DNA of 15,507 bases from a virus (IMGVR_UViG_2778261457_000008:1-15507); one strand, 5' to 3'. Counted from the stretch's first letter, positions 1,249 through 15,507 are shown. Numbers and translations: made by a program. The notes: a model not told the origin generated them from the sequence alone.

Positions 1249-1257
1249 ACGTAAACT

Positions 1258-1301
1258 TTTTCCGGTTGTTGTCGATAGCTCTATATCCCTCAACCGGAAA
1301 A
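1258..1301. repeat. Perfect 11-bp inverted repeat TTTTCCGGTTG / CAACCGGAAAA with 22-bp spacer, 10 bp after the cscB stop
   Basis: Read directly from sequence; no T-run follows, so not a canonical intrinsic terminator. Confidence 0.5.
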
Positions 1302-1689
1302 TAATAATAGTAAAATGCTTAGCCCTGCTAATAATCGCCTAATCCAAACGCCTCATTCATGTTCTGGTACAGTCGCTCAAATGTACTTCAGATGCGCGGT
1401 TCGCTGATTTCCAGGACATTGTCGTCATTCAGTGACCTGTCCCGTGTATCACGGTCCTGCGAATTCATCAAGGAATGCATTGCGGAGTGAAGTATCGAGT
1501 CACGCCATATTTCGCTATCAGGATTCTGTGTGATGGTTACATCGCCCGGCCCAGGGCTGTTTAGTCATCAGCGCTTTCTGACAGTGCTGAGATTTCAACC
1601 TGTTGCAGTAAAAATGAGTAGATATAAGGCAAGTGTGCTGCCAAACCCATCTTTTACGGGGTGAAGGTAGATTTCGTTTGAAGGGTATC

Positions 1690-1704
1690 TGGTGTCCCCT
1701 GCAG
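1690..1704 (-). mobile_element. Attachment-site core: 15 nt equal to a tRNA 3' end (T-stem 3' half, acceptor stem, discriminator, CCA); recalled as argW
   Basis: Minus strand reads CTGCAGGGGACACCA; it lies between the host cscB flank and the first phage gene; no complete tRNA is present in the window. Confidence 0.6.
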
Positions 1705-1777
1705 ACATCTACTTGACGCGGCAGGGGATTGATTAGAATGGTGTTTTTTAGGTGTGAGAAATATTTTACCCGCTATT

Positions 1778-1978
1778 TTACCCATTGGCGCGGCTTAAGA
1801 GCTTATTTTTGAATTCACAATGGTCACGATATAACCATCTTGCTCGCCCGTGGATAACTTTGGCTTTAGGCAGGTCGCCGGACTTAATCCGGTCATAGAT
1901 GAAGGTTTTACCGAAGCCAGTATCGGCCATGATGAATTTCAAATCAACCAGTGAATCAGGCTGTAGTTCGTGTTGCAT
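1778..1978 (-). CDS. torI: Excisionase / recombination directionality factor, AlpA-Xis winged-helix family (TorI-like)
   Basis: 66-aa product MQHELQPDSLVDLKFIMADTGFGKTFIYDRIKSGDLPKAKVIHGRARW…; GGAG 9 nt upstream of this ATG; the track's upstream ATG at 1993 has no SD; position next to att without int matches KplE1-type layout. Confidence 0.7.
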   Translation of the reverse strand: MQHELQPDSLVDLKFIMADTGFGKTFIYDRIKSGDLPKAKVIHGRARWLYRDHCEFKNKLLSRANG

Positions 1979-1995
1979 GAGTGCTATCTCCAAAT

Positions 1996-2013
1996 AGGGA
2001 ATCGAACCTGCAA
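1996..2013 (-). repeat. tRNA T-arm fragment (minus strand TTGCAGGTTCGATTCC) that continues the same tRNA as the 1690-1704 core
   Basis: 16-nt match to variable loop + T-stem 5' half + T-loop; the T-stem 3' half is missing here and is found at 1700-1704. Confidence 0.5.
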
Positions 2014-2020
2014 ATCAGGC

Positions 2021-2043
2021 AATAAAAAACCGCCATCAGGCGG
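2021..2043 (-). terminator. Intrinsic terminator on minus strand (stem CCGCC/GGCGG, loop TGAT, then TTTTTTATT)
   Basis: Hairpin plus U-run read from sequence; overlaps the stop of the 55-aa gene and lies just upstream of torI. Confidence 0.5.
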
Positions 2044-2203
2044 TTTGGTGTTCTTTCAGTTCTTCAATTCGAATATTGGTTACGTCTGCATGTGCTATCT
2101 GCGCCCATATCATCCAGTGGTCATAGCAGTCATTGATGTTCTCTGCTTCGATAACTCTGTTGAATGGTTCTCCATTCCATTCACCTGTGACTCGGAAGTG
2201 CAT
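2036..2203 (-). CDS. Small hypothetical prophage protein (55 aa), missed by the ORF track (<60 aa)
   Basis: ATG at 2203 preceded by GGAG with 7-nt spacing; open frame MHFRVTGEWNGEPFNRVIEAENINDCYDHWMIWAQIAHADVTNIRIEELKEHQTA; terminator follows. Confidence 0.5.
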   Translation of the reverse strand: MHFRVTGEWNGEPFNRVIEAENINDCYDHWMIWAQIAHADVTNIRIEELKEHQTA

Positions 2204-2361
2204 TTATCATCTCCATAAAACAAAACCCGCCGTAGCGAGTTCAGATAAAAGAAATCCCCGCGAGTGCGAGGATTGTTATTGTCTTTTCTTCGTGCATTTG
2301 TCGCACTTTCGGCACCATCCAGATAGGCACATCCGTCCGCAATTAACACATATAGGCCACA

Positions 2362-2643
2362 TCATTTTTCCTCTTTTGGTTTATGAATCTGAATGGTTAT
2401 GCCGCTTTGAGTGGTGACTACAATGACAGAACCAGGCTGAAGACTGTTAAGATTGAATGCTTCGTAAAACGAATCAAAGGCCAGCGCTTTTTTATTCTTT
2501 CGGTTCCACCAACGCCATCCCTTGCTACAGGCTACACTGACAATCCACTGTCCACTCCTGTAAGCCATATAAAACCAGATGAGCAAAACCTGAAGGAAGG
2601 CTATCCAGTCAATAATCGTATATTTCGCGAAGGAGTCCATCAT
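2362..2643 (-). CDS. Hypothetical small membrane protein (93 aa)
   Basis: ATG at 2643 with AGGAGG 4 nt upstream and ATGA overlap with the upstream gene's stop; one clear hydrophobic helix (IIDWIAFLQVLLIWFYMAY); the track's longer start at 2697 would overlap the upstream gene by 58 nt. Confidence 0.5.
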   Translation of the reverse strand: MMDSFAKYTIIDWIAFLQVLLIWFYMAYRSGQWIVSVACSKGWRWWNRKNKKALAFDSFYEAFNLNSLQPGSVIVVTTQSGITIQIHKPKEEK

Positions 2644-3362
2644 TTCGCCTCCTGCGGCGGTTCTGGTAGCGGCATCCAGTGGGTTACTCCATGCCATATA
2701 CCAGTTAAGGTTTCAAACCTTGGCTCTCTGCCTTTCTGTGTCTTGGCATATTCATTCCTTGTATATACGCATTGTCTAACTGCATATCCATTCCATCCAA
2801 TAACTGTTTGTCTAATTTCAGGCATTCGCTCACTACAGCTTATCCAACCATCCGGAGTTACCGGAGAGTTGCCATCCAGCGCGTTCAACTTGTAAGCCTG
2901 GCTTACAGGTTCGGCACTATGAAGCATGGCAGCGCGGCAGGCGTTCCAGCCTTGAACCTTAGCTATTGCCACAACTGCATCGGTAAAGAACATTCTCGCG
3001 GTATCTGGCTCCGGCATTTCATCCGGCACAGCTTGCTGCGGTAACTGTGGTACAGTCAGTGACTCCAATTCAGCGATACGCTTCTCTGCGGCTTCCAGTT
3101 CATCAAGCAGCGCCAAGACGGTAGCCGGATTGGCTGCAGCGATGAATTCAGCATTGGCCTGCTGTTCCATTTGGAAATCTTCATCGAAACCGCTTTCAGG
3201 ATGCGCTCCTTCAATTATGCAAATAGGAAGATATCCAACAACTTCACGATGAATTAGCGCATCACCAGCATCAAGTTTCTCCTCTCCATATTCGAGCGAC
3301 CACACACCACACGTTGCTTTCTCTGCCTTTTCACGCAGTGCCTGATAATCAATCTTGCTCAC
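2640..3362 (-). CDS. Ead/Ea22-like early accessory protein with DUF551-like C-terminus
   Basis: 240 aa; motifs NPATVLALLDELEAAEKR and C-terminal HGVTHWMPLPEPP recalled from Ead/Ea22 and DUF551 families; GTG start with AGGAGG 6 nt upstream, GTGA overlap with upstream gene. Confidence 0.6.
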   Translation of the reverse strand: MSKIDYQALREKAEKATCGVWSLEYGEEKLDAGDALIHREVVGYLPICIIEGAHPESGFDEDFQMEQQANAEFIAAANPATVLALLDELEAAEKRIAELESLTVPQLPQQAVPDEMPEPDTARMFFTDAVVAIAKVQGWNACRAAMLHSAEPVSQAYKLNALDGNSPVTPDGWISCSERMPEIRQTVIGWNGYAVRQCVYTRNEYAKTQKGREPRFETLTGIWHGVTHWMPLPEPPQEAK

Positions 3363-3898
3363 TGGTTGCCTCCTTTGCGAAGCTGGGCGGCGAATTTCTG
3401 TGCCTCTTTCTGGATGAATAGCTTTTCGCTGAAGTTATGGTACTGACCGAACATCTCCACGCCCTGCGCCCGAACTTCAGCCATGAAGGCGTCGGTGGCT
3501 GGGTGCTCTGTCTGGCTATGCATTGCCCATTCAGATAAGTACTCGAAGCAACGGCGAAACTCCTGCCAATCACTGCACATGTTTAGATTTCCGCCTTCAC
3601 ACTCGAACTGGTAATTCTCTAAACGGTCTGCAAACGCTATGCCATTCTCGATGGCACCAAGTGGAATATCAGACTTCATCCCCGCATTCTCTGCCGTAAG
3701 CGCCGCGCACTTGGCCTCAAGGTTATCAATCGTGATTCCAGCAGAACGACACTCCCGCAACGCCGTTTCCAGTTTTGATTCAAGTTCACCGAACTTACGG
3801 ACAAGATATTCAGCGTTTGTTTCGTTAACCTTTAAATCTCGTGGGATGCATTTACCTTTCAGAAAACCATCCATCTCAATTAGTGACATTTGTTTCAT
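3359..3898 (-). CDS. Hypothetical early-left protein (about 179 aa)
   Basis: Long open frame; I place the start at ATG 3898 (GGAG upstream) rather than the track's GTG at 3916, which has no SD; no recognisable domain. Confidence 0.5.
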
Positions 3899-4055
3899 TT
3901 CTTCCCACTCCGCCACATCGCATTCAGATATTTGTTGTCATTAACAGAACCGAAACTCTTTCTCTTAAGCAATTCCTCTCTCGATGGCATTGGCTTTACG
4001 CGTTGGCGAATAATCATTTCTGCCGGAAGAATGCCGGGGTTGTATGCAAGTTCTC

Positions 4056-4346
4056 TCATGATTTACTCTCCACGACCTGGTCAATAGCCATGCTAAGTGA
4101 CATACCTAAAGTTTCGATATGCTGCTGAATATCCTGTAGCGTCTGCGCCTGAGATAACAGGATTTCACGGTTACATAACTCTTTAACCAGATGCTCAAAC
4201 TTGCTGTAATAACCGATACGGCTTAGTGTTTCTTTCCCTGCATTCTCACCTTCTTTGATAATTCCTCTTTCACTAAGAATCAGGTCGTGTTTGGTTCCGG
4301 TAATAACGTATTTGCCGAGGTCGATGTTTAGCTTCATTGTTTTCAT
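4056..4346 (-). CDS. Hypothetical protein (96 aa)
   Basis: ATG at 4346 with GAGGA 7 nt upstream, overlapping the upstream gene's stop; the track's longer N-terminal extension lacks an SD. Confidence 0.45.
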
Positions 4347-4356
4347 TGTTAATTCC

Positions 4357-4650
4357 TCAGTCATTACTGATAGCGCCATAACGTGAGCGGTAATTACGCA
4401 GGCGCGGGTCAATTTCAGGGAAGTGGGTATATGTGGCTTTGCGGAATGGTCGGATTGATGTCTGGTAAATTCGCTCGCGTTCTTCTTTCTCTGCAAGCCA
4501 TATACAGTGGCGAAATTCCTTTTCCTCTTTCGTTTCCTGCGGTAGCGACATTATCAGGTCGTAGTTTTTTCTGAATTTATCCAGCACCTCCGATACGGAA
4601 TTGCCGGAACAGCGGCGCGCGTCGTCCGCACCATACAGAGGCGCTGGCAT
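4357..4650 (-). CDS. Hypothetical protein (97 aa)
   Basis: ATG at 4650 with AGGAG 6 nt upstream; tight packing with neighbours. Confidence 0.55.
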   Translation of the reverse strand: MPAPLYGADDARRCSGNSVSEVLDKFRKNYDLIMSLPQETKEEKEFRHCIWLAEKEERERIYQTSIRPFRKATYTHFPEIDPRLRNYRSRYGAISND

Positions 4651-4663
4651 GATTTTCTCCTGA

Positions 4664-5143
4664 TTAAATTGCGTGAATAGCGTGACGAGGGAAGGGGAGA
4701 GTTACTGGTTCCTCGTCTGGGTAGATAGGTTTGTTATGTTTGTGCCACTCGACATGACATGACTTGCAGAGCCACATCACATCGGTTGGTTTGCTGTAGT
4801 CGCAGTGGTGCGCCTGTGGTTTACATTCTGATCCGCAGCACTCACATTGTGGTGGTCGGATTAGCTTACCGTCGCGCAAAAAATTACCCACAATGATGTG
4901 GGCTTTTCTTTTCCATGGGTTGCTCTGAATGAACCGCTTTTTGGCTGCGTTACACCGTTCTCTTCCGCGTTCCGATGATTGATATTCTCTCCTTGCTGAT
5001 ACTCGATGTGGCAATCCAGCGCGTTCTTTGTCGTATTCAGCCAGGCAAGCCCGGCAAGCGGCAGTTAATCCATCTCTGGATGCTCTTCTGATTTGAAAGT
5101 CCCTTTCTTCCTTCTGTTGATGGCATCTTGAGCAGATTTTCAT
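4664..5143 (-). CDS. HNH endonuclease with N-terminal Cys-rich region
   Basis: 159 aa; C-terminal motif …CECCGSECKPQAHHCDYSKPTDVMWLCKSCHVEWH typical of the HNH fold; AGGAG 6 nt upstream of the ATG. Confidence 0.65.
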   Translation of the reverse strand: MKICSRCHQQKEERDFQIRRASRDGLTAACRACLAEYDKERAGLPHRVSARREYQSSERGRERCNAAKKRFIQSNPWKRKAHIIVGNFLRDGKLIRPPQCECCGSECKPQAHHCDYSKPTDVMWLCKSCHVEWHKHNKPIYPDEEPVTLPFPRHAIHAI

Positions 5144-5152
5144 ATTCAGCTC

Positions 5153-5626
5153 CTAGAACGGAATATCCGAATCGTCGAAGTTCATAGGTGGTTCGCTGTG
5201 ATTTCCCTGCTGCTGAGGTTGCTGTCTTTGTTGCTGACCATTATTTCGCTGAGGTGAAGACTGTTCATTGCCTCCTTGCTTGCCACCAAGCATTTGCATG
5301 GTTCCACCAACGCCCACGATGACTTCGGTAGTGAACCTATCCTGTCCGCTTTGATCCTGCCATTTTCTTGTCCGTAATTTGCCTTCAAGATAAACCTCAG
5401 AGCCTTTTCGCAGATATTCGCTGGCAATTTCTGCCAGTTTCCCGCTCATTACCACACGGTGCCACTCCGTCTGCTCCTTTTGCTCTCCAGTTTGCTTATC
5501 ACGCCATTGTTCTGACGTAGCAACTGTAAGGTTTGCAAATGCCGTTCCTGATGGTGAATATCTGATTTCTGGATCATGCCCAAGGCGACCAATAATGATC
5601 ACCTTATTTACGCCTCTACTTCCCAT
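5153..5626 (-). CDS. ssb: Single-stranded DNA-binding protein
   Basis: 157 aa; OB-fold N-terminus, Gly/Gln-rich linker and acidic tail ending DDSDIPF. Confidence 0.85.
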
Positions 5627-6334
5627 TTATGCCGCCTGTTTTAGTTCGTTAACTCTGATGTTCATTACCTGAACGCATTTAGCCTGCGCCTCCTCGTTGC
5701 CAGCCATTAATTGCCAGTCACGCTGATAACGCTCGATGAGTTTTTTCTTGTCAGTTTCTGTTGACGCATAATCGCTGAAGTCTTTCAGGATTTGTTCGCA
5801 GTCAACCGATGGAGATTTCTGGTTGGTATTTTCTGGTGATGGTTTGTTATCTGATGCTGGGATTGCCCATCCCGGCAGCGATGGAGGGAGCCAGTAAAAT
5901 CCTGTTCCATCCTTCAGTTTTGCCCTGTGCCACCCCTGCTTTTTATCGAGAGATGTTTGTGCGAAACCTTCCTCAAGGTTATACAGATACCGACCGATTC
6001 CCCACTGAACGGCAGCACGCTTCATTGCACCGGAACGACCACCTTTTACGGCTTCTACCTGCGTGTTTTCAGCGGCATCCCATTTGGTTACCCATTCGGA
6101 ATCAATCTTGATTGATATGCCGCATTCAACTCCGCCGTTGTTGGGAATATCGCGGTATTCATTGCGCCATCCTGCTTTGCCGCAAACATCGTCCAGGCGT
6201 TTCATGATTGCCCGGTTCGTGACATAAGCCAGCACCATAGCCCACACCTTGCCATCGCGTGTTTTACCGCTTTGCTGTATTCGCCATTCGATATCTTCAG
6301 GGCTGAATGGCTCATCGAATTTATTCAAATCCAT
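5627..6334 (-). CDS. Rad52/Sak-like single-strand annealing protein (recombinase)
   Basis: 235 aa; pattern …GGRSGAMKRAAVQWGIGRYLY… resembles Rad52-fold annealing proteins; sits in the bet/erf slot beside ssb; GAGGTG 4 nt upstream of ATG. Confidence 0.55.
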   Translation of the reverse strand: MDLNKFDEPFSPEDIEWRIQQSGKTRDGKVWAMVLAYVTNRAIMKRLDDVCGKAGWRNEYRDIPNNGGVECGISIKIDSEWVTKWDAAENTQVEAVKGGRSGAMKRAAVQWGIGRYLYNLEEGFAQTSLDKKQGWHRAKLKDGTGFYWLPPSLPGWAIPASDNKPSPENTNQKSPSVDCEQILKDFSDYASTETDKKKLIERYQRDWQLMAGNEEAQAKCVQVMNIRVNELKQAA

Positions 6335-6342
6335 AATTCACC

Positions 6343-6531
6343 TCAGAATGGTAATTCGGATGGGGAGGAAAGAAATTCGCGCTCATTCATGCGCTCTCTT
6401 TGTGCTTGCCATAAACAAAGTTGTTTCTTTGATTTATCTCCCGCTTTACGCCAGTAACGAGCCTCAGCAATGTGATATTCTCTTTTTAATCGACTTAACT
6501 CTGGAGTTTTCGCCAGCTCTACCGGAATCAT
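6343..6531 (-). CDS. Hypothetical small basic protein (62 aa)
   Basis: ATG at 6531 with GGAGG 5 nt upstream; ATGA overlap with the kil stop. Confidence 0.45.
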   Translation of the reverse strand: MIPVELAKTPELSRLKREYHIAEARYWRKAGDKSKKQLCLWQAQRERMNEREFLSSPSELPF

Positions 6532-6641
6532 TTAGACCTCCATTTTCTGTAGGCTTCGACGGCCTCACGAAACATCTTTTCATCGCCAATAAAAGTGGCG
6601 ATAGTGAATTTAGTCTGAATAGCCATAAGTGTTTTATCCAT
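6528..6641 (-). CDS. kil: Kil-like host-killing / cell-division inhibitor (37 aa)
   Basis: MDKTLMAIQTKFTIATFIGDEKMFREAVEAYRKWRSK matches my recollection of lambda Kil; its ATG overlaps the cIII stop (ATGGATAA). Confidence 0.5.
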   Translation of the reverse strand: MDKTLMAIQTKFTIATFIGDEKMFREAVEAYRKWRSK

Positions 6642-6780
6642 TTTTTGGAACTCCTGGCTGATTAAGTACGTCGATGAGTCGTTTCCATCCGTCACGTAAT
6701 TTACGGGTGATTCGTTCAAGTAAAGATTCATTTAGTTGGAAGGCACCCATGCGAGCGCCTCCCGCGATTGCGTAAATCAT
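6634..6780 (-). CDS. cIII: CIII (FtsH/HflB inhibitor stabilising CII)
   Basis: 48-aa product MIYAIAGGARMGAFQLNESLLERITRKLRDGWKRLIDVLNQPGVPKNG; central helix matches recalled lambda CIII; AAGGAA 6 nt upstream; not in the ORF track, which instead fuses frames into 6528..6731. Confidence 0.6.
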   Translation of the reverse strand: MIYAIAGGARMGAFQLNESLLERITRKLRDGWKRLIDVLNQPGVPKNG

Positions 6781-6804
6781 GGGTGGTTCCTTATGTTGGT
6801 TTTA

Positions 6805-7773
6805 TTAGTAGGTTATTTTTGTTGCGAATACTTCGCCTTTTACGATGGCTGTTATGATATTTTTAGCAACATCTTCTGATGCGCCAACCTTGATAAGGTC
6901 AGCAAGTATTTTGTTATTTACTTCTTTTCGGTGAGCTTTATCCTTTGCTCTACACTCTTCTTCTTCCTTGATTCTTTTTTCTTCTGCTATTCTGGCTTGC
7001 TCTTTTGCTTCAGCCTCGCGCCGGATTCGTTCAGCCTCCTCCTGTGCTTTTCGGCGTTCTGCTTCAATTGCCGCATGCTTTTCTCTTTCAGCTCGTTCTG
7101 CTGCCTCTTTTGCTTCGCGCTGTGCTCGTTGCTCGGCTTCAATGCGTTCACGCTCTGCACGTTCCGCTGCGGCCTTAGCTTCTGCTTCTCGCCTTGCTGC
7201 TGCTTCAATTTCGGCTTTTGCCTTTGCTTCGGCTTCAGCTCTGGCTTTCTCTTCAGCTTCTCTTTTTAAGCGTTCTTCATGCTCTCGCTTTTCCTGCTCC
7301 GCTTTGAGTCTTGCCTCTTCTCTTTGGCGGTCAAATTCGCGATCCATCAAAATCGCTATTTCATGGTCAGACTCAATTTGCTTTGCGAGAGCTTCAGCTG
7401 CTGCCCTAGCTTCTTCTTCGGCTTTAATCCGCGCCTGTTCTTCCTCATAATCAGTAAGAGGCTGGCGTGCCTTGGCTTTCAGCTCATCAAGGCGATCACG
7501 CACTGTCTTGCGGTTGGCATCAATTAGCTTTGGAATTTCCTTCAGTTCAGCAACAAGGTCTTTGCCAAGACCATCGAGATATGTTTTCGTCTGCGCAACT
7601 TTATACGCCAGAGAAGCGATCTCCTTTCTGCCCTTTGCCGTTGTGATATCAGGCACAAAGGACATAACTTCACGTTCAACCTTTTGAAGGATTTCTTCAA
7701 TCTGGCCGGCAGACTGAAATACAGTCATTGCATTTGCTTTTTCAATAACAACTAAATCTGTTACTTCACTCAT
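6805..7773 (-). CDS. Hypothetical phage protein with long Glu/Ala/Arg/Lys-rich coiled-coil (322 aa)
   Basis: ATG at 7773 with GGAGG 4 nt upstream; the track's start at 7827 lies inside the upstream terminator hairpin; about 150 residues of EAKAEAE/RREAE repeats. Confidence 0.6.
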   Translation of the reverse strand: MSEVTDLVVIEKANAMTVFQSAGQIEEILQKVEREVMSFVPDITTAKGRKEIASLAYKVAQTKTYLDGLGKDLVAELKEIPKLIDANRKTVRDRLDELKAKARQPLTDYEEEQARIKAEEEARAAAEALAKQIESDHEIAILMDREFDRQREEARLKAEQEKREHEERLKREAEEKARAEAEAKAKAEIEAAARREAEAKAAAERAERERIEAEQRAQREAKEAAERAEREKHAAIEAERRKAQEEAERIRREAEAKEQARIAEEKRIKEEEECRAKDKAHRKEVNNKILADLIKVGASEDVAKNIITAIVKGEVFATKITY

Positions 7774-7785
7774 ATATCCTCCGTC

Positions 7786-7812
7786 AAAAAAATTGCCCTC
7801 ACACTGGAGGGC
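7786..7812 (-). terminator. tL1-like intrinsic terminator on minus strand (stem GCCCTC/GAGGGC, loop CAGTGT, then AATTTTTTT)
   Basis: Read from sequence; lies just upstream of the coiled-coil gene's SD. Confidence 0.5.
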
Positions 7813-7962
7813 AAAGAAGATTTCCAATAATCAGAACAAGTCGGCTCCTGTTTAGTTACGAGCGACATTGCTCAGTGTATTCACTCGTTGGAATGAATAT
7901 ACAGTGCAGTGTTTATTAGTATGCCTGTCTTTTAACCACATCAGGCTCGGTGGTTCTCGTGT

Positions 7963-8010
7963 ACCCCTACAGCGAGAAATCGGATAAACTCTATTCACCC
8001 CTACAGAGAG
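7963..8010. repeat. Two 14-bp direct repeats ACCCCTACAG(C/A)GAG, 34 bp apart, upstream of sieB
   Basis: 7963-7976 and 7997-8010, 13/14 identical; the second ends 16 bp before the sieB ATG. Confidence 0.4.
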
Positions 8011-8026
8011 CAAAAGAGAAACGCCG

Positions 8027-8608
8027 ATGAACAACTCATGGTGGCAGGAACTAATGCATTTTTTCCTGCAAGGAATGACACTTAAACAGTTGATTCATAT
8101 GCTAATCATCCTAATCATATTGATTATTGTTATGCCTGTAAGCGTAAAAGAATGGATAAACCTGCATAATCCAGAAATCCTTCCTCATTACTGGATGTAT
8201 TACATCCTGTTGTTTTGCGTTAGCTATGTGCTTAACGGCGTTGTTAATTCCGCTTATCACGCTGTGACTGAAAGAATTGAGATATTCGCTGCTCAGAAGC
8301 GCAAATCTAAAGAAGAGAAATACGTGCAAGATTTGTTTGATTCGTTAACTCTTGGAGAAAGAGCGTATTTGGCATTCGCTGTAGCCGCTAATAACCAGCT
8401 AAAGACAGAAAAGGGAAGCCCTGAAGCAATCTCATTGCTCGAAAAAGGGCTTCTTATTCGGGTACCTTCTGCTACTGGATATCCTGAAATCGACCGTTTT
8501 GTTATCCCGGAACGCTATAGAAATGAGTGCTACATTAGGTTTGCTGGGAAGAAAGACAGTCTTATGGATGAACTTATCGCTCAGGATAAGCATGGCAAAA
8601 ACAAGTAA
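8027..8608 (+). CDS. sieB: Superinfection exclusion protein B-like membrane protein
   Basis: 193 aa; N-terminal hydrophobic helices then a soluble domain; opposite strand from its neighbours next to N, as for sieB in lambdoid and Rac prophages; family call is from memory. Confidence 0.55.
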   Translation: MNNSWWQELMHFFLQGMTLKQLIHMLIILIILIIVMPVSVKEWINLHNPEILPHYWMYYILLFCVSYVLNGVVNSAYHAVTERIEIFAAQKRKSKEEKYVQDLFDSLTLGERAYLAFAVAANNQLKTEKGSPEAISLLEKGLLIRVPSATGYPEIDRFVIPERYRNECYIRFAGKKDSLMDELIAQDKHGKNK

Positions 8609-8624
8609 TTAGCAAATTAATTTA

Positions 8625-8897
8625 TCATCTCGCCGTCAGTTGTTTTGATTTCCGGTAGCCTGCCGCGTAAATGGCTACGTTTGGCAGGCAAATACTTCCA
8701 CTGCATTCATCTGCCTTCTTGCAGCGAAGGCTTCCGAGTGATGCTGCTTTGTCTGCTCTGACGCAACCAGAGAGCTTTAGCGCAATTTTTCGCGCCAGTC
8801 GCTGTTCTTGCATTGCCTGCTCACGTTGAGCCTGTCTGCGTGCTCTGCGGCGATTTCTGGCGTTATCGTCAGCCAGATATGTAATGACTACTGCCAT
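8625..8897 (-). CDS. N: Antitermination protein N (P22 gp24-like)
   Basis: 90 aa; N-terminal arginine-rich motif NARNRRRARRQAQRE; C-terminus …YAAGYRKSKQLTAR recalled from P22 gene 24; GGAGG 5 nt upstream; nutL and pL lie upstream. Confidence 0.7.
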   Translation of the reverse strand: MAVVITYLADDNARNRRRARRQAQREQAMQEQRLARKIALKLSGCVRADKAASLGSLRCKKADECSGSICLPNVAIYAAGYRKSKQLTAR

Positions 8898-9004
8898 GTT
8901 GACCTCCGATGATTGACTTTGGCGGTGACGCGCCGGGTGCTTATCTTCCGGTTGCCGTCGTGCAGCTGCACTTCACGTCACCCCAAAGCCAACTACTCTT
9001 TGGT

Positions 9005-9045
9005 TCCCGCATTTCGGCGGGACAATCCCATCAATGTTAAAGAGC
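9005..9045 (-). promoter_or_regulatory. nutL: boxA (GCTCTTTAA) followed by boxB hairpin (CCCGC CGAAAT GCGGG)
   Basis: Read on the minus strand between pL and N; the boxB sequence is identical to the one at nutR. Confidence 0.55.
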
Positions 9046-9091
9046 CTGCCAATCTGTTCCGTTTGGCTACCAGCGTCCTGCTGATGGCTAA

Positions 9092-9132
9092 AGAATACTG
9101 TAGGTATTTTATTGTGTAAATACCCAAGGTAT
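9092..9132 (-). promoter_or_regulatory. pL with OL operators
   Basis: Minus-strand -35 TTTACA (9115-9120) and -10 TATTCT (9092-9097) with 17-bp spacer; operators ATACTGTAGGTAT (9095-9107) and ATACCCAAGGTAT (9120-9132) overlap them. Confidence 0.55.
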
Positions 9133-9265
9133 TTATTTTTGGTGAAATAATGATAAGCAAATGAATACAAAGGATATTTATTTTTTTCGGTGTCTGCTTG
9201 TTCAGTGCTTTTTATGCGGGATATGTGAAGTGGATCCCGATAGCTATTGCTGCCGGGATTATAGG

Positions 9266-9634
9266 TTAGTCAGCGAAGGTTAAGACGAGAATTACCTTAA
9301 TGATGTCTGCTACAACAGACACGGCCATAGATAAACCAAAGACGATCCAAGCCACAGTGATGTCTTCACTACCATCGTATAGAGTTCCGTAATCACTGGT
9401 GTAAGGCGTAAATGTCGCGCCTTGATACAATAGGTATAAGCTTGATCCATAGAGGATAAATGCAGATATCCCTTGTATTGCTATGATCACAAGAATCATG
9501 AAACGAGCTGATCTATGCGCCCAAGCCTGGCTTATTTTTTCTGATAGAGATTTCGCAATAAAAGCATGCGCTAAGCCGTAAATTGTCGAGATTGCCAACA
9601 TCCCAAAAAAGCTTGCTATAGCGGTTCCAACCAT
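9266..9634 (-). CDS. Small integral membrane protein (about 122 aa, about 4 TM) directly downstream of cI, in the rex slot
   Basis: ATG at 9634 with AAGGGG 5 nt upstream, 17 nt after the cI stop; the track's start at 9655 is a TTG overlapping the cI stop; very hydrophobic; no recognisable family. Confidence 0.6.
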   Translation of the reverse strand: MVGTAIASFFGMLAISTIYGLAHAFIAKSLSEKISQAWAHRSARFMILVIIAIQGISAFILYGSSLYLLYQGATFTPYTSDYGTLYDGSEDITVAWIVFGLSMAVSVVADIIKVILVLTFAD

Positions 9635-9651
9635 AAGCGCCCCTTGCGTGA

Positions 9652-10368
9652 TCAAACCAGCCTTAGTTTTGTCTCAATTGCAACGCCTATAATCTTGCAG
9701 TTTCCATTGATTGGCACGAGAGGCCATGCAGGATTAAGTCCCTTGAGGTATTTATTTCCGCCGTCGATTATCAGCTTCTTGAATGTTGCTTCGTTAGAGT
9801 CAGAAAGTTTTGCTATGACCAAGCTGCCGTTGATCGCCTCCCTTCCGGTATCGAAAAGAACGAATGTTCCCTCTGGAATGCTTAACCCAACCGGTGCCGT
9901 CATTGAATCACCTTCCACTTTAAGCCAAAACGCATTACCTTGAATATGCGCGTCAGACTCAAGCCAAACATCTATGTCTTTAATGGTGTATGGTTCGCAT
10001 GCTTCACACCACGAGCCAGCCTGGATACTGCTTAACACCGGATACCTCTTTCCTGCTCTGTATTCCCCTGCATACCTTACGTTGGCATCGCTCTTAAGGC
10101 TTTCTGCCTGTTCTGCAACCTTGGCAGCAATTGACTGGCTAAAATCAGCAATTGAGACTTGCAACAATCGTGCAAAACCAGATGCAACCTCAACGTTTAG
10201 CGCGTTTCTGCCATTAAGATAATGCCCTACCGCTCCTTGGGTGATACCAAGTTCATCAGCGATTGAGTATTGGGTTATTCCCAATTCTTTCTTTTTTGAC
10301 TCATACAAAGCCTTAAGACGCTTAGCGTCTTCGAGCTGTTCTGTCGTCAGTGATTTTTTATTTTCCAT
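9652..10368 (-). CDS. cI: CI-type prophage repressor (HTH + S24 LexA-like autocleavage domain)
   Basis: 238 aa; N-terminus LTTEQLEDAKRLKALYESKKKELGITQ and C-terminal FWLKVEGDSMTAP…FKKL closely parallel lambda CI; divergent from cro across operators. Confidence 0.9.
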   Translation of the reverse strand: MENKKSLTTEQLEDAKRLKALYESKKKELGITQYSIADELGITQGAVGHYLNGRNALNVEVASGFARLLQVSIADFSQSIAAKVAEQAESLKSDANVRYAGEYRAGKRYPVLSSIQAGSWCEACEPYTIKDIDVWLESDAHIQGNAFWLKVEGDSMTAPVGLSIPEGTFVLFDTGREAINGSLVIAKLSDSNEATFKKLIIDGGNKYLKGLNPAWPLVPINGNCKIIGVAIETKLRLV

Positions 10369-10374
10369 AGCTTA

Positions 10375-10445
10375 ATTCTAATAGCTAAGGTACTTAAACT
10401 AAAAATACCCTAAGTATTGATTGCTTTGAATACCTGTAGTATTCT
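10375..10445. promoter_or_regulatory. OR switch: three operators with divergent pR and pRM
   Basis: Operators ATAGCTAAGGTAC (10381-10393, weak), ATACCCTAAGTAT (10405-10417), ATACCTGTAGTAT (10430-10442), centres about 25 bp apart; pR -35 TTGATT (10417-10422) and -10 TATTCT (10440-10445); minus-strand TAGAAT (10375-10380) abutting the cI ATG suggests a leaderless pRM transcript. Confidence 0.6.
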
Positions 10446-10474
10446 TTGTTCATGGTTAATAACGGAGAGTGCAT

Positions 10475-10669
10475 ATGATTCGAATGACACTTGCCGATTA
10501 CGCCAAAATCCATGGACAGGCTAAAGCAGCCAGTGACTTTGGTGTAATCCAGTGCGCTATCAGCAAGGCCATTCTGGCAGGCCGTAACATTATGGTTACG
10601 GTAAAGCCTGATGGCAGTGTGATTGGAGAGGAAGTTCGTCCTTTCCCAAGCAACAAGAAAAACAAATAG
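10475..10669 (+). CDS. cro: Cro repressor
   Basis: 64 aa from the ATG at 10475 (GGAGAG 5 nt upstream); …[40 protein letters not shown] parallels lambda Cro; the track's GTG start at 10469 is too close to the SD. Confidence 0.85.
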
Positions 10670-10675
10670 TAACAC

Positions 10676-10720
10676 CGCTCTTTAACAGTCATGGTCCTCA
10701 TTCCCGCCGAAATGCGGGAA
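10676..10720 (+). promoter_or_regulatory. nutR: boxA (CGCTCTTTAACA) and boxB hairpin (CCCGC CGAAAT GCGGG)
   Basis: Immediately after the cro stop; boxB identical to nutL. Confidence 0.6.
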
Positions 10721-10777
10721 TACAACGCGCACAAGTTGATGCGCATAACTTCTTATTAGTTAAGGAAATACTTACAT

Positions 10778-11056
10778 ATGCAACTTACAAGTACTCGCAA
10801 GAAAGCGAATGCAATTACAAGCAACATCCTGAATCGAATTGCTGTACGTGGTCAGCGAAAGGTTGCCGACGCGTTAGGGATTAATGAATCGCAAATTTCG
10901 CGATGGAAAGACAGCTTCATCCCAAAAATGGGAATGCTTCTGGCTGTTCTTGAATGGGGTGTTGAAGACGAGGAGTTGGCGGAACTGGCTAAGAAAGTAG
11001 CAAGAATGCTGACAAAAGAAAAAGCCCCGAAGAACGGCGAATTCTTCGAGGCCTGA
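10778..11056 (+). CDS. cII: CII transcriptional activator
   Basis: 92 aa; …[39 protein letters not shown] parallels lambda CII. Confidence 0.8.
11014..11052 (-). terminator. oop-like antisense intrinsic terminator overlapping the cII 3' end
   Basis: Minus strand: 11-bp stem with one mismatch (GCCTCGAAGAA / TTCTTCGGGGC), 7-nt loop, then TTTTTCTTTT. Confidence 0.5.
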
Positions 11057-11090
11057 TGTAGAAAGACTGGATCAATCCACAGGAGTAATT

Positions 11091-11237
11091 ATGACAAAAC
11101 AACTCAGTCCTTACCAGGACAAAATTCACAAACACATACTACGTGATCGCTTCCTGTCCAGCTTCAAGCAGCCTGGTCGATTCCGGGCTGAGTTGGAAAA
11201 AGTGAAGCTGATGCAGAAGGAGAAAGGTCATGAGTAA
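11091..11237 (+). CDS. Candidate small basic protein (48 aa) between cII and O
   Basis: ATG with AGGAG 5 nt upstream; no internal stops; overlaps the O start by 8 nt; not in the ORF track (<60 aa); [48 protein letters not shown]. Confidence 0.35.
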
Positions 11238-12090
11238 TCTTGCAACCGTAACACATTTAAGGCCTTCACAACGGCCTGTGGAGCGTCGTGTGGCAGAAGT
11301 TGAAGATGGTTATACCCGTCTTGCAAATGCCCTGTATGAAGAGCTTATCGGCGCTGATTTAACGAAAAATCAGAGCAAGGTTGCCCACGCCATATGCCGT
11401 AAAACATACGGCTACGGTAAAAAGATGGATCGCATCTCTGATAGTCAGTTAGCTCAAATTACCAGGCTGCCAAGACAGAAGGTAAACAAGGCCAAGAATG
11501 AGCTTATCGCGATGAAGGTTATCCTTCGCGAAGGCCAGCAAATCGGGCCTAACAAGAACATCGAGGAATGGCAAATCGAAGGGTGTCACTACTCTGGTGA
11601 TAATGTCACTGCATTGGTGACAAAAAGTGTCACCAAAACGGTGACAGCGCTGTCACCAAAACAGGGACACACAAAAGAAACTATTACAAAAGAAAAAAGA
11701 AATAATAAAAACACTATGTCCGAAAGTGTTCGGACGGAGTGTGAAAAATCACATGACCGTCACGAAGAAACCGACAAGGCATTCGAGGAAATATTCTGGT
11801 GTGCAGGCATGCGGAAAGCCGGGAAGAAAAACGCAGCTTCGGCATTCAGAACACAGTTCAGGGAATGGCGTAAAACTACCAGGGGTACGGCAAGCGAGTT
11901 TGCCACGATGCTGGCAGAAGACATCGCATGCAGGAATGGTAAGCAGTTCGGATTCGACAGGTTGTTACCATCGAGCTACCTGAACGGTCAACGCTGGAAC
12001 GACGAGAAGCCAGAAACTATTCAACCACAATCCAAACCATCATCCGCAATCACCGTATCGAAAACTGGCTACGTGTTTTTCGACAGGTGA
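11230..12090 (+). CDS. O: Replication initiator, lambda O-like N-terminal DNA-binding domain with divergent C-terminal domain
   Basis: 286 aa; N-terminal region (…[14 protein letters not shown]…[40 protein letters not shown]…) parallels lambda O; AAGGAG 7 nt upstream; origin iterons lie inside the gene. Confidence 0.8.
11584..11715. repeat. Replication origin: iterons followed by an AT-rich tract, inside the O gene
   Basis: Palindromic units GGTGACA-N5-TGTCACC (11616-11634) and GGTGACA-N4-TGTCACC (11640-11657), a partial unit at 11596-11610, each followed by AAAAC; AT-rich run 11658-11715. Confidence 0.6.
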
Positions 12091-12093
12091 ACC

Positions 12094-12201
12094 ATGAAAT
12101 CAAAAATCAAATCGCTACTGGTCGCTGGTTATAACCACGGCTGGTTAAGTATTTCGTTTGTAGATTTCTGGTTTAAAAATCTCAATCTGAGGGAATCATG
12201 A
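12094..12201 (+). CDS. Possible 35-aa hydrophobic micro-ORF coupled to the helicase gene
   Basis: ATG 4 nt after the O stop with AGGTG 4 nt upstream; its TGA overlaps the helicase ATG (ATGA); could be chance. Confidence 0.25.
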   Translation: MKSKIKSLLVAGYNHGWLSISFVDFWFKNLNLRES

Positions 12202-14078
12202 GGCCAAGTGAACTTAGCGACCTGCTTTGGGCGCAGGTTGACAGGGTGGCTCCGCACCTGTTGCCAAACGGCAAGAAAGAGGGGCATGAGTGGGTTGCCG
12301 GTAACGTCAACGGTGACAAGGGAAACAGCCTTAAGGTCAACCTTAGCGGCAAGAAAAAATGGGCTGATTTCGCTGAGGGAGACGGCGGTGACATGCTTGA
12401 TTTGTGGATGGCATGTCGTGGAATTAACCTGCATCAGGCTATGCAGGAAGCGAAAGCCTTTCTCGGAATCAAGGATGACGATCACCATTTCGATGCCAAA
12501 CGTGAGAAGAAATTCTCCAGACCTGACCGCAAGAAAATCGCCCGCTACGTTACCAGAACAGAATCCCATCTTGAGTACCTGCAATCGCGTGGCATATCGC
12601 CAGAAGTCGTAAAGCGCTACGAGGTTGTCAGCGGCAAGGTGTGGAATGGAGAACGAGAACTTGATGCACTGGTGCTTCCGTACAAACGCGATGGTGAGTT
12701 GTTGCAGGTCAAGCGAATCAGCACTGAGCGCCCGGACGGGAAGAAAGTCATTATGGCAGAAGGTGATTGTGAACCTTGTCTGTTCGGATGGCAGGCTCTG
12801 GACGCTGGCGTGAGGGCGGTTGTACTTTGCGAAGGCGAAATTGATTGTATGAGCTATGCGCAATACGGCATCTCGGCGTTATCCGTGCCGTTTGGTGGCG
12901 GGAAAGGCGCTAAGCAACAGTGGATTGAGTTTGAGTATCACAATCTCGACAGGTTTGAGGAAATATTCATCTCGATGGACGTTGATGATGTTGGTCGTGA
13001 AGCCGCAATGGAAATCGCAAGCCGACTCGGTGAACATCGTTGCCGTCTTGTTACTCTGCCGTACAAAGACATCAACGAATGCCTGATGAACGGTGTTACC
13101 GAGGATGAAATCTGGCAGTACATCGGCACGGCATCCTACTTCGATCCTGAAGAACTCTACAGTGCGCGAGAGTTTTACCAGGACACTATCAACGCTTTCT
13201 ACGGCAAGCAGCAATATCTGTTTAATCCACCGTGGGAATCTCTGGCAGATAAATTCCAGTTCCGTGAGGCAGAGTTGACGCTGGTCAATGGTGTGAACGG
13301 TCACGGAAAAACGGAGGTTGTCGGGCATATGGCACTTGAGGCAATGCGTCAGGGTGTGAAGACGTGCATCGCGTCACTTGAGCTGAAGCCAGGCATTCTC
13401 CTTAAGCGACTTACCCGTCAGGCGACGTGCTGCAAGATGCCGCCAGTGCTGGAAATTGACTCTGCATTTAAATTTTATGACGAAAGACTTTGGGTGTTTG
13501 GCCTGACCGGAACGGCGAAAGCCGACAGGCTGATCGAAATATTCGACTACGCTCGCCGCCGATACGGGATCCAGTTATTCATCATCGACAGCCTGATGAA
13601 ATGTGGCATAGGCGACGATGACTATAACGGGCAGAAGGCGTTTGTTGACTCGATTTGCGACTTCAAAAACAAAACAAACTCCCACGTCATTCTCGTTACT
13701 CACTCGCGAAAAGGAGACAGCGAAGAAAAACCAACCGGGAAAATGGACGTAAAAGGCTCTGGAGCGATAACAGACCTGACAGACAACCTTTTCATCATCT
13801 GGCGTAACAAGGCTCGCGAGAGAGCGTTACAGAGAGTTCAGAGTGGTGAAAAGATGTCAGAGAAGGACGAACAGTTACTGGCATCTCCGGCATCTGTTTT
13901 GATGCTTGAAAAACAACGTAACGGCGAAGGTTGGGAAGGTGGTGTCCCGTTGTTCCTTGACGAGCAATCGCACCAGTTCCTGCAACTTGAATCAGGATCG
14001 CCATATAGCTACATCGCCAATATGCCGAAATCGGAATATGACGAGGCGTGGCGACAGGAAAACGTGACGGAGTATTAA
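12198..14078 (+). CDS. Bifunctional DNA primase/helicase (Toprim primase domain + DnaB/RecA-like P-loop helicase)
   Basis: 626 aa; Toprim-like VLCEGEIDCMS and ISMDVDDVG; Walker A GVNGHGKTE, Walker B FIIDSLMK, then ILVTHSRKG; occupies the lambda P slot. Confidence 0.8.
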   Translation: MRPSELSDLLWAQVDRVAPHLLPNGKKEGHEWVAGNVNGDKGNSLKVNLSGKKKWADFAEGDGGDMLDLWMACRGINLHQAMQEAKAFLGIKDDDHHFDAKREKKFSRPDRKKIARYVTRTESHLEYLQSRGISPEVVKRYEVVSGKVWNGERELDALVLPYKRDGELLQVKRISTERPDGKKVIMAEGDCEPCLFGWQALDAGVRAVVLCEGEIDCMSYAQYGISALSVPFGGGKGAKQQWIEFEYHNLDRFEEIFISMDVDDVGREAAMEIASRLGEHRCRLVTLPYKDINECLMNGVTEDEIWQYIGTASYFDPEELYSAREFYQDTINAFYGKQQYLFNPPWESLADKFQFREAELTLVNGVNGHGKTEVVGHMALEAMRQGVKTCIASLELKPGILLKRLTRQATCCKMPPVLEIDSAFKFYDERLWVFGLTGTAKADRLIEIFDYARRRYGIQLFIIDSLMKCGIGDDDYNGQKAFVDSICDFKNKTNSHVILVTHSRKGDSEEKPTGKMDVKGSGAITDLTDNLFIIWRNKARERALQRVQSGEKMSEKDEQLLASPASVLMLEKQRNGEGWEGGVPLFLDEQSHQFLQLESGSPYSYIANMPKSEYDEAWRQENVTEY

Positions 14079-14109
14079 ATGACCATCTACATCACTGAGC
14101 TAATAACAG

Positions 14110-14136
14110 GGGCTATTTACACAGTAGCCCTTTTTT
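14110..14136 (+). terminator. tR2-like intrinsic terminator between the replication genes and the nin region
   Basis: Stem GGGCTA/TAGCCC with 9-nt loop followed by TTTTTT. Confidence 0.6.
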
Positions 14137-14163
14137 ATTGGATTAAGAACGAGGGGGATCCTG

Positions 14164-14376
14164 ATGGACACCGTTAACGGAATGTGTTCAGACGCACCGC
14201 GTGCCAAAAAATGTAAATGCGGAAAATCACCGACAATATTCGACATGGAGAACGGGTGCCAAATCTACTGCGCTAACCACGCCGCTGTGGCGGCCGCGAA
14301 TTATCGCAGTGCGGTAACGGAGTGGAATAACCTGAAATCTGTTAGAGAGGGAAGTCATGAAAAAACTAACCTTTGA
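14164..14376 (+). CDS. Small Cys-rich (zinc-ribbon-like) nin-region protein
   Basis: 70 aa with CKCG…GCQIYC cysteine pairs; AGGGGG 6 nt upstream; its 3' end overlaps the ninB start by 20 nt; possibly Lar-like, not confirmed. Confidence 0.5.
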   Translation: MDTVNGMCSDAPRAKKCKCGKSPTIFDMENGCQIYCANHAAVAAANYRSAVTEWNNLKSVREGSHEKTNL

Positions 14377-14797
14377 AATTCGATCTCCAGTACATCAGCA
14401 AAACGCTATTCACGCAGTACAGCAAATCCTTCCAGACCCAACAAAACCAATCGTAGTAACCATTCAGGAGCGCAACCGCAGCTTAGACCAAAATCGGAAG
14501 CTTTGGGCTTGCCTTGGTGACGTTTCGCGTCAGGTTGAATGGCATGGTCGCTGGCTGGATGCAGAAAGCTGGAAGTGTGTGTTTACCGCAGCATTAAAGC
14601 AGCAGGACGTTGTTCCTAACCTTGCCGGGAATGGCTTTGTGGTAATAGGCCAGTCAACCAGCAGGATGCGTGTAGGCGAATTTGCGGAGCTATTAGAGCT
14701 TATACAGGCATTCGGTACAGAGCGTGGCGTTAAGTGGTCAGACGAAGCGAGACTGGCTCTTGAGTGGAAAGCGAGATGGGGAGATCGGGCTGCATGA
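14357..14797 (+). CDS. ninB: NinB (Orf) recombination mediator
   Basis: 146 aa; essentially the lambda NinB sequence as I recall it ([72 protein letters not shown]…). Confidence 0.85.
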
Positions 14798-15507
14798 TAA
14801 ATGTCGTTAGTTTCTCCGGTGGCAGGACGTCAGCATATTTGCTCTGGCTAATGGAGCAAAAGCGACAGGCAGGTGAAGACGTGCATTACGTTTTCATGGA
14901 TACAGGGGCAGAGCACCCTAAAACATATGAGTTCATCCGAAATATCGTCAGTAACTGGAAAATAGACTTACATTGCCTTCGTGTAATACCTAATCCAGAA
15001 ATGGGGAAGGCCAGTAGTTATGAAGAGATAGGTGTCAATGATATTGGTCCAGATCTTATACCGTGGAAAAGGATGTTGAATAAATACGGACATCCATATA
15101 TCGGCGGTGCGTTCTGTACCGACAGAATGAAGTCTGTTCCATTCACCAAATATTGTCAGGAAAAGTTTGGGAAAGGAAATTTCATCACATGGCTTGGCAT
15201 TCGCACAGATGAACCAAACAGGCTTAAAAGGGCTAATGGTTTTCGGTACCTGGCTGATATAAGCGATTTTGAAAAACAGGATGTGCTTGATTGGTGGAGT
15301 GAGCAGAAGTTTGATCTTGGCATACAGGAGCATCTTGGTAATTGTGTTTTCTGCATAAAAAAAAGTATGCAAAAGGTGGCGCTGGCAGCCATGGATGAGC
15401 CAGAACTTGCAGATGCATTTATCAACATCCTTGATACAGAAATAAAAACAGGAAAGGTAGACTGGCCCCCTGAATCTCCAGACAACCAATATCACTTAAA
15501 TAAGTGA
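14794..15507 (+). CDS. PP-loop ATP pyrophosphatase / PAPS-reductase-like protein (NinC-position)
   Basis: ATG at 14794 overlaps the ninB stop (ATGA); product begins [15 protein letters not shown], a P-loop-like SGGxxS signature; 237 aa; stop is the last codon of the window. Confidence 0.65.

Follow-up and report, generated by a model that had tools for sequence, protein, structure and literature searches.

Phage lambda carries no gene in the gap between cII and O, and its pO promoter overlaps the start of O (PMC3349717). A passage in Hayes et al. presents lambda as the exception in lacking a gene at this place. P22 Orf48 and HK620 HkaW are both 48 aa long, lie between a cII-like gene with its oop unit and the initiator gene, and overlap the initiator by 8 nt; the curated P22 map runs c1, oop terminator, oop promoter/orf48 and gene 18, with the oop promoter overlapping the first codons of Orf48. 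A second kind of small gene, found as ES18 gp60, epsilon34 gp51 and g341c gp46, is 35 aa long and fills the space from the initiator stop to the start of a primase/helicase gene.

Both kinds of gene are present in the DNA analyzed here, a 15,507-nucleotide stretch of viral sequence (IMGVR_UViG_2778261457_000008, positions 1-15507) that is referred to below as the window. Its ORF48 shares the length, slot, 8-nt initiator overlap, oop promoter position and gene order of the P22 and HK620 examples, and its ORF35 shares the length and position of the ES18 group. An earlier note on this DNA had put both forward as unannotated micro-ORFs coupled to the replication genes. We find that ORF48 and ORF35 are already known genes, neither new nor unusual, and very probably they are protein-coding, catalogued small-protein genes belonging to the early-right (pR) replication module of lambdoid phages.

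Arrangement of the immunity and replication segment

Positions 9652-14078 of the window make up a lambdoid prophage immunity and replication region, in which the following features were located.

9652-10368, minus strand: cI-like repressor
about 10475-10669, plus strand: cro
10778-11056, plus strand: cII-family activator, the upstream neighbor of ORF48 (Pfam Phage_CII, E = 1.8e-42)
11012-11080, minus strand: putative oop-like antisense RNA (terminator scan and homology to lambda)
11081-11085, plus strand: Shine-Dalgarno AGGAG of ORF48, 5 nt before its ATG
11088-11116, minus strand: putative oop promoter, -10 CATAAT (11093-11088) with TG upstream, -35 TGGTAA (11116-11111)
11091-11237, plus strand: ORF48, 48-aa basic protein (DUF2740 / PHROG 1913)
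11217-11222, plus strand: Shine-Dalgarno AAGGAG of O, within ORF48, read from the sequence
11230-12090, plus strand: O-type initiator (Pfam Phage_rep_O, E = 1.1e-37; TIGR01610)
11584-11669, strand not applicable: ori, four 19-bp iterons TGTCAC-N7-GTGACA inside O (repeat search)
12085-12090, plus strand: Shine-Dalgarno AGGTGA of ORF35, spanning the O stop codon
12094-12201, plus strand: ORF35, 35-aa amphipathic protein (PHROG 21848)
12189-12193, plus strand: Shine-Dalgarno GAGGG of the primase/helicase, in the ORF35 Leu32-Arg33 codons (CUG AGG) and the next codon
12198-14078, plus strand: Toprim and DnaB-like primase/helicase of the ES18 gp61 type, T7 gp4-like (Pfam Toprim_2, AAA_25, DnaB_C)
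from 14357, plus strand: next ORF of note downstream of the primase/helicase

The genes cII, ORF48, O, ORF35 and primase/helicase follow one another, and from ORF48 onward the frames overlap or abut without a break. The first gene, cII, is named ‘lambda phage CII family protein’ by PGAP. ORF48 runs from ATG 11091 to TAA 11235-11237, its final 8 nt overlapping the O start (ATG 11230), and ORF35 runs from ATG 12094, 3 nt past the O stop, to TGA 12199-12201, sharing an ATGA overlap with the primase/helicase start (ATG 12198). The N-terminal Phage_rep_O domain of O is the predicted origin-binding part; an A-rich stretch follows 3' of the iterons, and the corresponding stretch in ES18 and epsilon34 is annotated ‘similar to lambda ori’.

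Lambda is homologous to the window at the 3' end of cII, over the oop terminator and the oop body, and then in a Shine-Dalgarno and ATG. In the alignment these conserved signals are the ones that O uses in lambda, whereas here the conserved ATG starts ORF48 and O then has its own Shine-Dalgarno. The oop terminator hairpin (11022-11054, minus strand) has a 14-bp stem and a U-run to about 11012, lies in the cII 3' end and folds at -27.2 kcal/mol (z = -4.7), and the region aligns to the oop of lambda, P22 and ES18. By homology to lambda, the 5' end of the RNA would lie near 11080, so placed that the predicted transcript would face the 3' end of cII as an antisense RNA, and not ORF48. The putative oop promoter lies over codons 1-9 of ORF48, with its -10 at the start codon. 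The curated oop promoter of P22 and lambda pO occupy homologous positions, and the -10 of pO likewise overlaps the start codon of the following gene. A simple promoter scan made no call for this promoter, and Rfam returned no family in the region, including the oop coordinates, apart from one sub-threshold chance match inside O.

The geometry given in the earlier note is borne out by these assignments, including both reading frames, the strong Shine-Dalgarno of ORF48, its overlap with the O start, the ATGA junction of ORF35 and the tight positional coupling of two genuine ORFs to the replication genes. It was also right in placing no lambda gene in the cII-O interval, and a lambda-like oop unit does adjoin ORF48. 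ORF48 is basic, as had been said, with a pI of 10.1 and 12 lysines and arginines versus 6 aspartates and glutamates. To call ORF35 hydrophobic was an overstatement: its GRAVY is -0.01 and its best 19-residue Kyte-Doolittle window reaches 0.92, and a membrane peptide was rejected on this low hydropathy and the lack of a membrane-spanning segment.

Families and distribution of the two small genes

ORF48 matches PF10872 (DUF2740) across profile positions 1-43 of 43, scoring 99.4 bits where the cut-off is 27 (E = 9e-29), and it matches PHROG 1913 at E = 2.7e-28. The protein shows 100% identity with HK620 HkaW and with ORFs of HK022, VT2-Sakai (H0097), Stx2 II and mEp043, and 85% identity with P22 Orf48. 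It is found in 127 phage records and is present in 400 of 5426 complete E. coli genomes (at least 95% nucleotide identity), where PGAP names it ‘DUF2740 family protein’ in all records inspected. A profile search for the wider family yielded 201 clusters; the 120 listed have lengths of 41-90 aa, with no domain fusions of DUF2740-like proteins among them, and the named sources are all Enterobacterales but for one tiny contig. A ‘tail protein’ label attached to PHROG 1913 / DUF2740 is a propagated and implausible one.

The slot that ORF48 occupies, from cII/oop to the initiator on the same strand, is filled by a gene of this type in P22, Midgardsormr38, Sf101 and E. coli prophages, and species-level genomes of Erwinia, Pantoea, Citrobacter, Enterobacter, Rosenbergiella and Arsenophonus have a basic ORF of 46-57 aa there, followed 3' by an initiator of the O type or of other types. 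Six slot-type small ORFs were tested, and the five filling the slot in those genomes belong to PHROG 1913; the narrower Pfam DUF2740 model is reached by only some of the tested PHROG 1913 slot ORFs. In every locus examined, with O-type and other initiators alike, the small ORF and the initiator share 4-14 nt where the one stops and the other starts. ORF48 keeps its slot whatever initiator and helicase come next, and this independence points away from a specific phage partner for ORF48. Taken together with Hayes et al., the survey indicates that a peptide gene in the cII-O gap is the norm and that lambda is the exception, so the earlier view that a peptide here would be unusual is reversed: a small basic ORF at this place is the rule among lambdoid phages.

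ORF35 matches PHROG 21848 over positions 1-34 of 35 (E = 4.4e-26), with 97% identity to ES18 gp60 and 71% to epsilon34 gp51. The family is annotated under those two names and as g341c gp46, and its members in Oslo, 720R6 and SaltyDalty appear as ‘hypothetical protein’. In E. coli it is carried by 217 of 5426 complete genomes, and in 40 records sampled across the ranking of these matches RefSeq/PGAP left it uncalled every time (40/40), the only feature under the match being the start of the toprim gene. A profile-free exhaustive search of 1.8 billion representative proteins found three true relatives, which fits a family that is usually missed by gene callers. ORF35 is therefore a conserved micro-protein that RefSeq annotation missed in every one of the 40 E. 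coli genomes sampled. The word ‘unannotated’ in the earlier note accordingly fails for ORF48, which PGAP names and which has been annotated in P22, HK620 and HK022 for decades, and holds in part for ORF35, given the RefSeq omission on the one side and the several phage submissions that annotate the gene on the other.

The conservation of ORF35 was scanned with one genome per species, giving 17 loci. An exact 35-codon, ATG-initiated ORF35 abutting the primase/helicase start was found at 15 of them; the frame is broken at the other two, one from an Arsenophonus MAG and one from a Candidatus Symbiopectobacterium genome. All phage loci examined also have the intact 35-codon frame before a Toprim/DnaB-like primase/helicase. 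A 131-aa Arsenophonus protein (P0060) that joins an initiator C-terminal fragment to ORF35 is probably a pseudogene artifact. In most homologues AGGTGA(TC) or AGGAG precedes the ATG, this being absent from loci L008, L101, L103 and L104, and CTGAGG at the 3' end is kept in 11 of 14. In all homologues examined the helicase start lies -4 to +3 nt from the end of ORF35, with junctions that differ in kind (ATGA in the window, TAATG in epsilon34 and a 3-nt gap in SaltyDalty). A programmed frameshift from ORF35 into the helicase was rejected, as the frame offset is not constant, being +2 in most homologues but 0 in SaltyDalty, and no slippery site was noticed. Seven representative homologues, five of them divergent at 51-71% identity to the window, agree in 13 of 35 columns: M1, K2, K6, L9, G12, Y13, N14, G16, L18, V23, F27, L32 and R33.

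Many phages share the window only from about 11657/11706, in the middle of O, rightward, so that the C-terminal half of O, ORF35 and the helicase travel as one module. Such joint travel is what recruitment of the helicase by the O C-terminal domain would lead one to expect. ORF35 stands behind O-type and other initiators, including one annotated ‘primosomal protein I’, and always before this helicase. A Vibrio phage with a helicase of 60% identity and a Pseudomonas phage at 39% have no ORF35, and in both the stop of the initiator gene lies directly over the start of the helicase gene. The absence from these relatives marks ORF35 as a lineage-restricted accessory gene and not a universal part of the enzyme, and with lambda lacking ORF48 it follows that neither protein is generally required. 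Between the window and epsilon34, ORF35 differs at 29% of amino acids while the O C-terminus and the helicase N-terminus on either side show about 99% identity, so that many ORF35 residues cannot set partner specificity; the two phages carry distinct ORF35 alleles between identical flanks.

Selection on the reading frames and RNA structure

Because 61 ORFs of at least 30 aa lie within 5.5 kb, a short ORF is uninformative by itself. This abundance, and the missing RefSeq calls for ORF35, would suit the reading that both are chance ORFs in non-coding spacers, which has to contend with family matches at E on the order of 1e-26 or lower, with a frame and length kept across genera, and with the codon-level evidence. 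Over 14 divergent sequences, the ORF35 frame has 0 stops and a pN/pS of 0.36, versus 47 and 36 stops and pN/pS of 1.05 and 1.76 in the other two frames, and the greatest variation falls at third codon positions. Nei-Gojobori dN/dS for ORF35 against the window is 0.15-0.51 where dS is estimable, with a median of 0.22 over all pairs, and ORF48 gives 0.18-0.35 for pairs with dS from 0.04 to 2.4. This constraint is similar to that on the O C-terminal domain and weaker than that on the helicase N-terminus (about 0.03-0.05). ORF48 and ORF35 are above chance by family matches, conserved position and purifying selection; the chance-ORF reading is vanishingly unlikely and, on this conservation and selection, effectively refuted. 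Frame conservation in related phages, a check that the earlier note had proposed, and the codon-level analysis came out on the side of genes, with many synonymous changes in both ORFs.

Low dN/dS together with the frame-specific absence of stops indicates that both ORFs are selected as proteins, and the codon-level analysis argues that this purifying selection does not act on them as spacers or leaders. Some codons have a second duty, with those of ORF48 His47-Glu48 spanning the O ATG and those of ORF35 Leu32-Arg33 overlapping the helicase Shine-Dalgarno (CUGAGG), and some invariant residues may be owed to such overlapping signals instead of protein function.

The earlier note had suggested regulatory or leader peptides. 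In that reading the act of translation alone matters, by opening the mRNA or delivering ribosomes, and the peptides have no function; the tightly overlapping or abutting frames would suit it, and so would two RNA structures. The first is in the window mRNA at 12064-12209, which folds as one long hairpin (z = -4.4) in which the O 3' end pairs with the helicase Shine-Dalgarno and AUG. Across 13 homologues the individual folds of the ORF35 region disagree and the RNAalifold consensus amounts to just -1.5 kcal/mol, and a conserved mRNA structure at this place was therefore rejected. The second is within ORF48, where RNAalifold on six members pairs the O start (GGUCAUG) with the codons of the invariant Arg18-Asp19-Arg20, CGUGA(U/C)C. 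The Arg18 codon is CGU in 6/6 members despite saturated synonymous divergence, and single-sequence minimum-energy folds contain the stem in 4/6 of these close members; in the wider family the O AUG pairs with other partners. The O AUG stem is suggestive of structure-assisted coupling.

The hairpin over ORF35, being unconserved, and the changing partner of the O AUG both weigh against a pure leader function, as does the fact that O and the helicase each have a good Shine-Dalgarno of their own. The terminator scan found no plus-strand terminator or attenuator 3' of ORF48 or ORF35, and neither peptide contains a run of regulatory codons. The amino acids are conserved over the whole length of both proteins, with a low dN/dS of 0.15-0.45 and a clear third-position pattern. 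We consider it quite improbable that the two ORFs act as leader or coupling ORFs without functional products, and the suggestion of a leader or regulatory peptide is not supported by these results. The most likely picture is one of two translationally coupled accessory micro-proteins. Ribosomes would then be handed from gene to gene along the pR transcript and the small proteins co-produced with their large neighbors, a sequence of events that we hold to be somewhat more probable than its opposite.

Possible roles and relation to described phages

AlphaFold predicted two helices for ORF48 (residues 7-23 and 28-44, pLDDT 79) and two short amphipathic helices for ORF35 (residues 2-14 and 20-29, pLDDT 81); the alignment used for the ORF35 model contained three sequences. 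A PDB sequence search and Foldseek gave nothing significant among relatives of solved structure for either protein, NCBIfam and PADLOC gave no match for either peptide, and published function or expression data for ORF48/DUF2740 or ORF35 were not found in the literature. The name ‘orf48’ in PMC12373910 belongs to gnarl1, where it is an unrelated library number. The proposals on mechanism that follow, for both small proteins, are drawn from position and linkage only.

For ORF48, we tentatively suggest a non-essential, basic helical-hairpin factor with a common host or nucleic-acid target, acting at the junction between the lysis-lysogeny decision and replication, a role to which we give well under an even chance. 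Its predicted basic two-helix hairpin and its constant place directly beside the oop unit could also recall a Rop-like RNA-binding protein that modulates the adjacent oop/cII sense-antisense pair. This is an argument from position only, there is no structural match to Rop or to an RNA-binding fold, and lambda runs oop/cII control without ORF48, so that we regard such a function as very improbable.

For ORF35, an accessory or adaptor role in helicase recruitment, with the protein binding the helicase or the initiator-helicase junction, is a possibility to which we lend a little more weight than to the ORF48 proposal, still short of probable. ORF35 accompanies this enterobacterial primase/helicase clade and no other, irrespective of the type of the initiator N-terminus. 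A more specific form, in which ORF35 would be a micro-adaptor joining the O C-terminal domain to the T7-gp4-like primase/helicase as a dedicated 35-residue subunit, is rather unlikely. If true, such an adaptor would partly fill the bridging role that lambda P has toward host DnaB.

ORF35 might instead be directed at the host, as an inhibitor of a host replication protein (DnaB, DnaC or DnaG), by analogy with Sri, a small protein that in staphylococcal phage acts on DnaI, the helicase loader of the host. Strict linkage to a self-sufficient primase/helicase module, dispensability in distant helicase relatives, and allele exchange between identical flanks, which fits a target other than the neighboring phage proteins, are all consistent with an inhibitor. 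Searches showed no homology to known inhibitors, however, and a partner role would account at least equally well for the tight stoichiometric coupling with the helicase, which leaves host inhibition on the unlikely side, level with the dedicated subunit. The accessory role at the helicase or its junction with the initiator is the reading of ORF35 that we prefer. Both small proteins sit in very tractable phages, the model phages P22, HK620, HK022 and ES18 among them.

Among the small early proteins of lambdoid phages, lambda CIII, a 54-aa FtsH inhibitor, is likewise small, helical and part of the early lysis-lysogeny program, and a superficial LRD...QPG resemblance to ORF48 can be seen. The two are not related, and a CIII-like FtsH inhibitor was rejected for ORF48 at an hhalign probability of 0.9%. 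A closer parallel is offered by HK97 gp53, ES18 gp58 and epsilon34 gp49 (PHROG 1331), small basic ORFs (53 aa, pI 10.6) in the ORF48 slot that use the conserved Shine-Dalgarno and ATG and overlap the O start as ORF48 does. These form a separate family, with no DUF2740 match and a likeness confined to the first ~10 residues; the idea that ES18 gp58 is a frameshifted DUF2740 protein was discarded, its other frames being full of stops. Finally, ORF48 shows no substantial difference from its known relatives, and the window departs from them in what comes next: in those phages the small gene is found with P22 gp12 or a lambda-P-type loader, whereas here it precedes an O gene paired with a primase/helicase.

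Family label and antisense neighbor of ORF48

The family of ORF48, the 48-aa basic ORF encoded at 11091-11237 (+), is labeled "tail protein" in PHROGs (DUF2740/Orf48; PHROG 1913), and many RefSeq phage records carry the same label, including NC_002371 (P22 orf48), NC_019706, and NC_070949. As this is a 48-aa early-operon ORF situated between cII and the initiator, the label is almost certainly a propagated misannotation. A candidate antisense unit lies directly beside it.

11012-11116, minus strand: putative oop antisense unit, lambda/P22-like and apparently complete

The terminator hairpin of this unit lies in the 3' end of cII, and the -10 of its putative promoter overlaps the start codon of ORF48, both on the minus strand of the window. 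Searching Rfam yielded no match at the coordinates of the unit.

Origin and rearrangements of the replication region

The replication initiator gene O contains the following feature.

11584-11712, within O: origin, iterons followed by an A-rich stretch

The four 19-bp iterons have the form TGTCAC-N7-GTGACA and are spaced 20-24 bp apart. The terminator scan wrongly calls these iterons minus-strand terminators.

In three E. coli matches (H40, H41, and H60), a NUMOD4-motif HNH endonuclease gene is inserted within the matched replication region, and the match is therefore split in two pieces. The helicase protein match in Min27 (L006) falls in three pieces across 2906 bp, which suggests an insertion within this region too. 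In E. coli strain 573 (L001, 2999-4058), the closest E. coli relative, the primase/helicase gene is truncated (a partial pseudogene according to PGAP) with a lysis gene directly after it, showing that this prophage carries an internal deletion. In Arsenophonus nasoniae (L101), the pair of initiator and ORF35, the 35-aa ORF at 12094-12201 (+), is duplicated in tandem (442-1255 and 1711-2608), and a related 131-aa Arsenophonus protein, P0060, fuses a C-terminal initiator fragment in frame to ORF35. This duplication and fusion probably represent pseudogenization in a decaying symbiont genome, while the fusion could also be read as a weak hint of functional linkage.

RNA structure and divergence at ORF35

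A predicted RNA structure covers ORF35 and its junctions.

12064-12209, plus strand: long imperfect RNA hairpin

In this prediction, the end of O pairs with the helicase SD and AUG and with the ORF35 start. The plus-strand RNA segment 12060-12240 (181 nt) folds at -59 kcal/mol (z = -4.4), a value covering the whole segment, including a second small hairpin. The 12064-12209 hairpin is not conserved in the 13 homologues compared and is specific to the allele of the window.

ORF35 is also a sharp divergence patch between the window and epsilon34 (L005, 1501-1608), with 67-90% identity across ~110 nt, amino acid differences of 29%, and a pS of 0.45, while the flanks at 12024-12083 and 12231-12260 are 100% identical. 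ORF35 seems either to be swapped as a mini-cassette or to be evolving faster than its neighbors.
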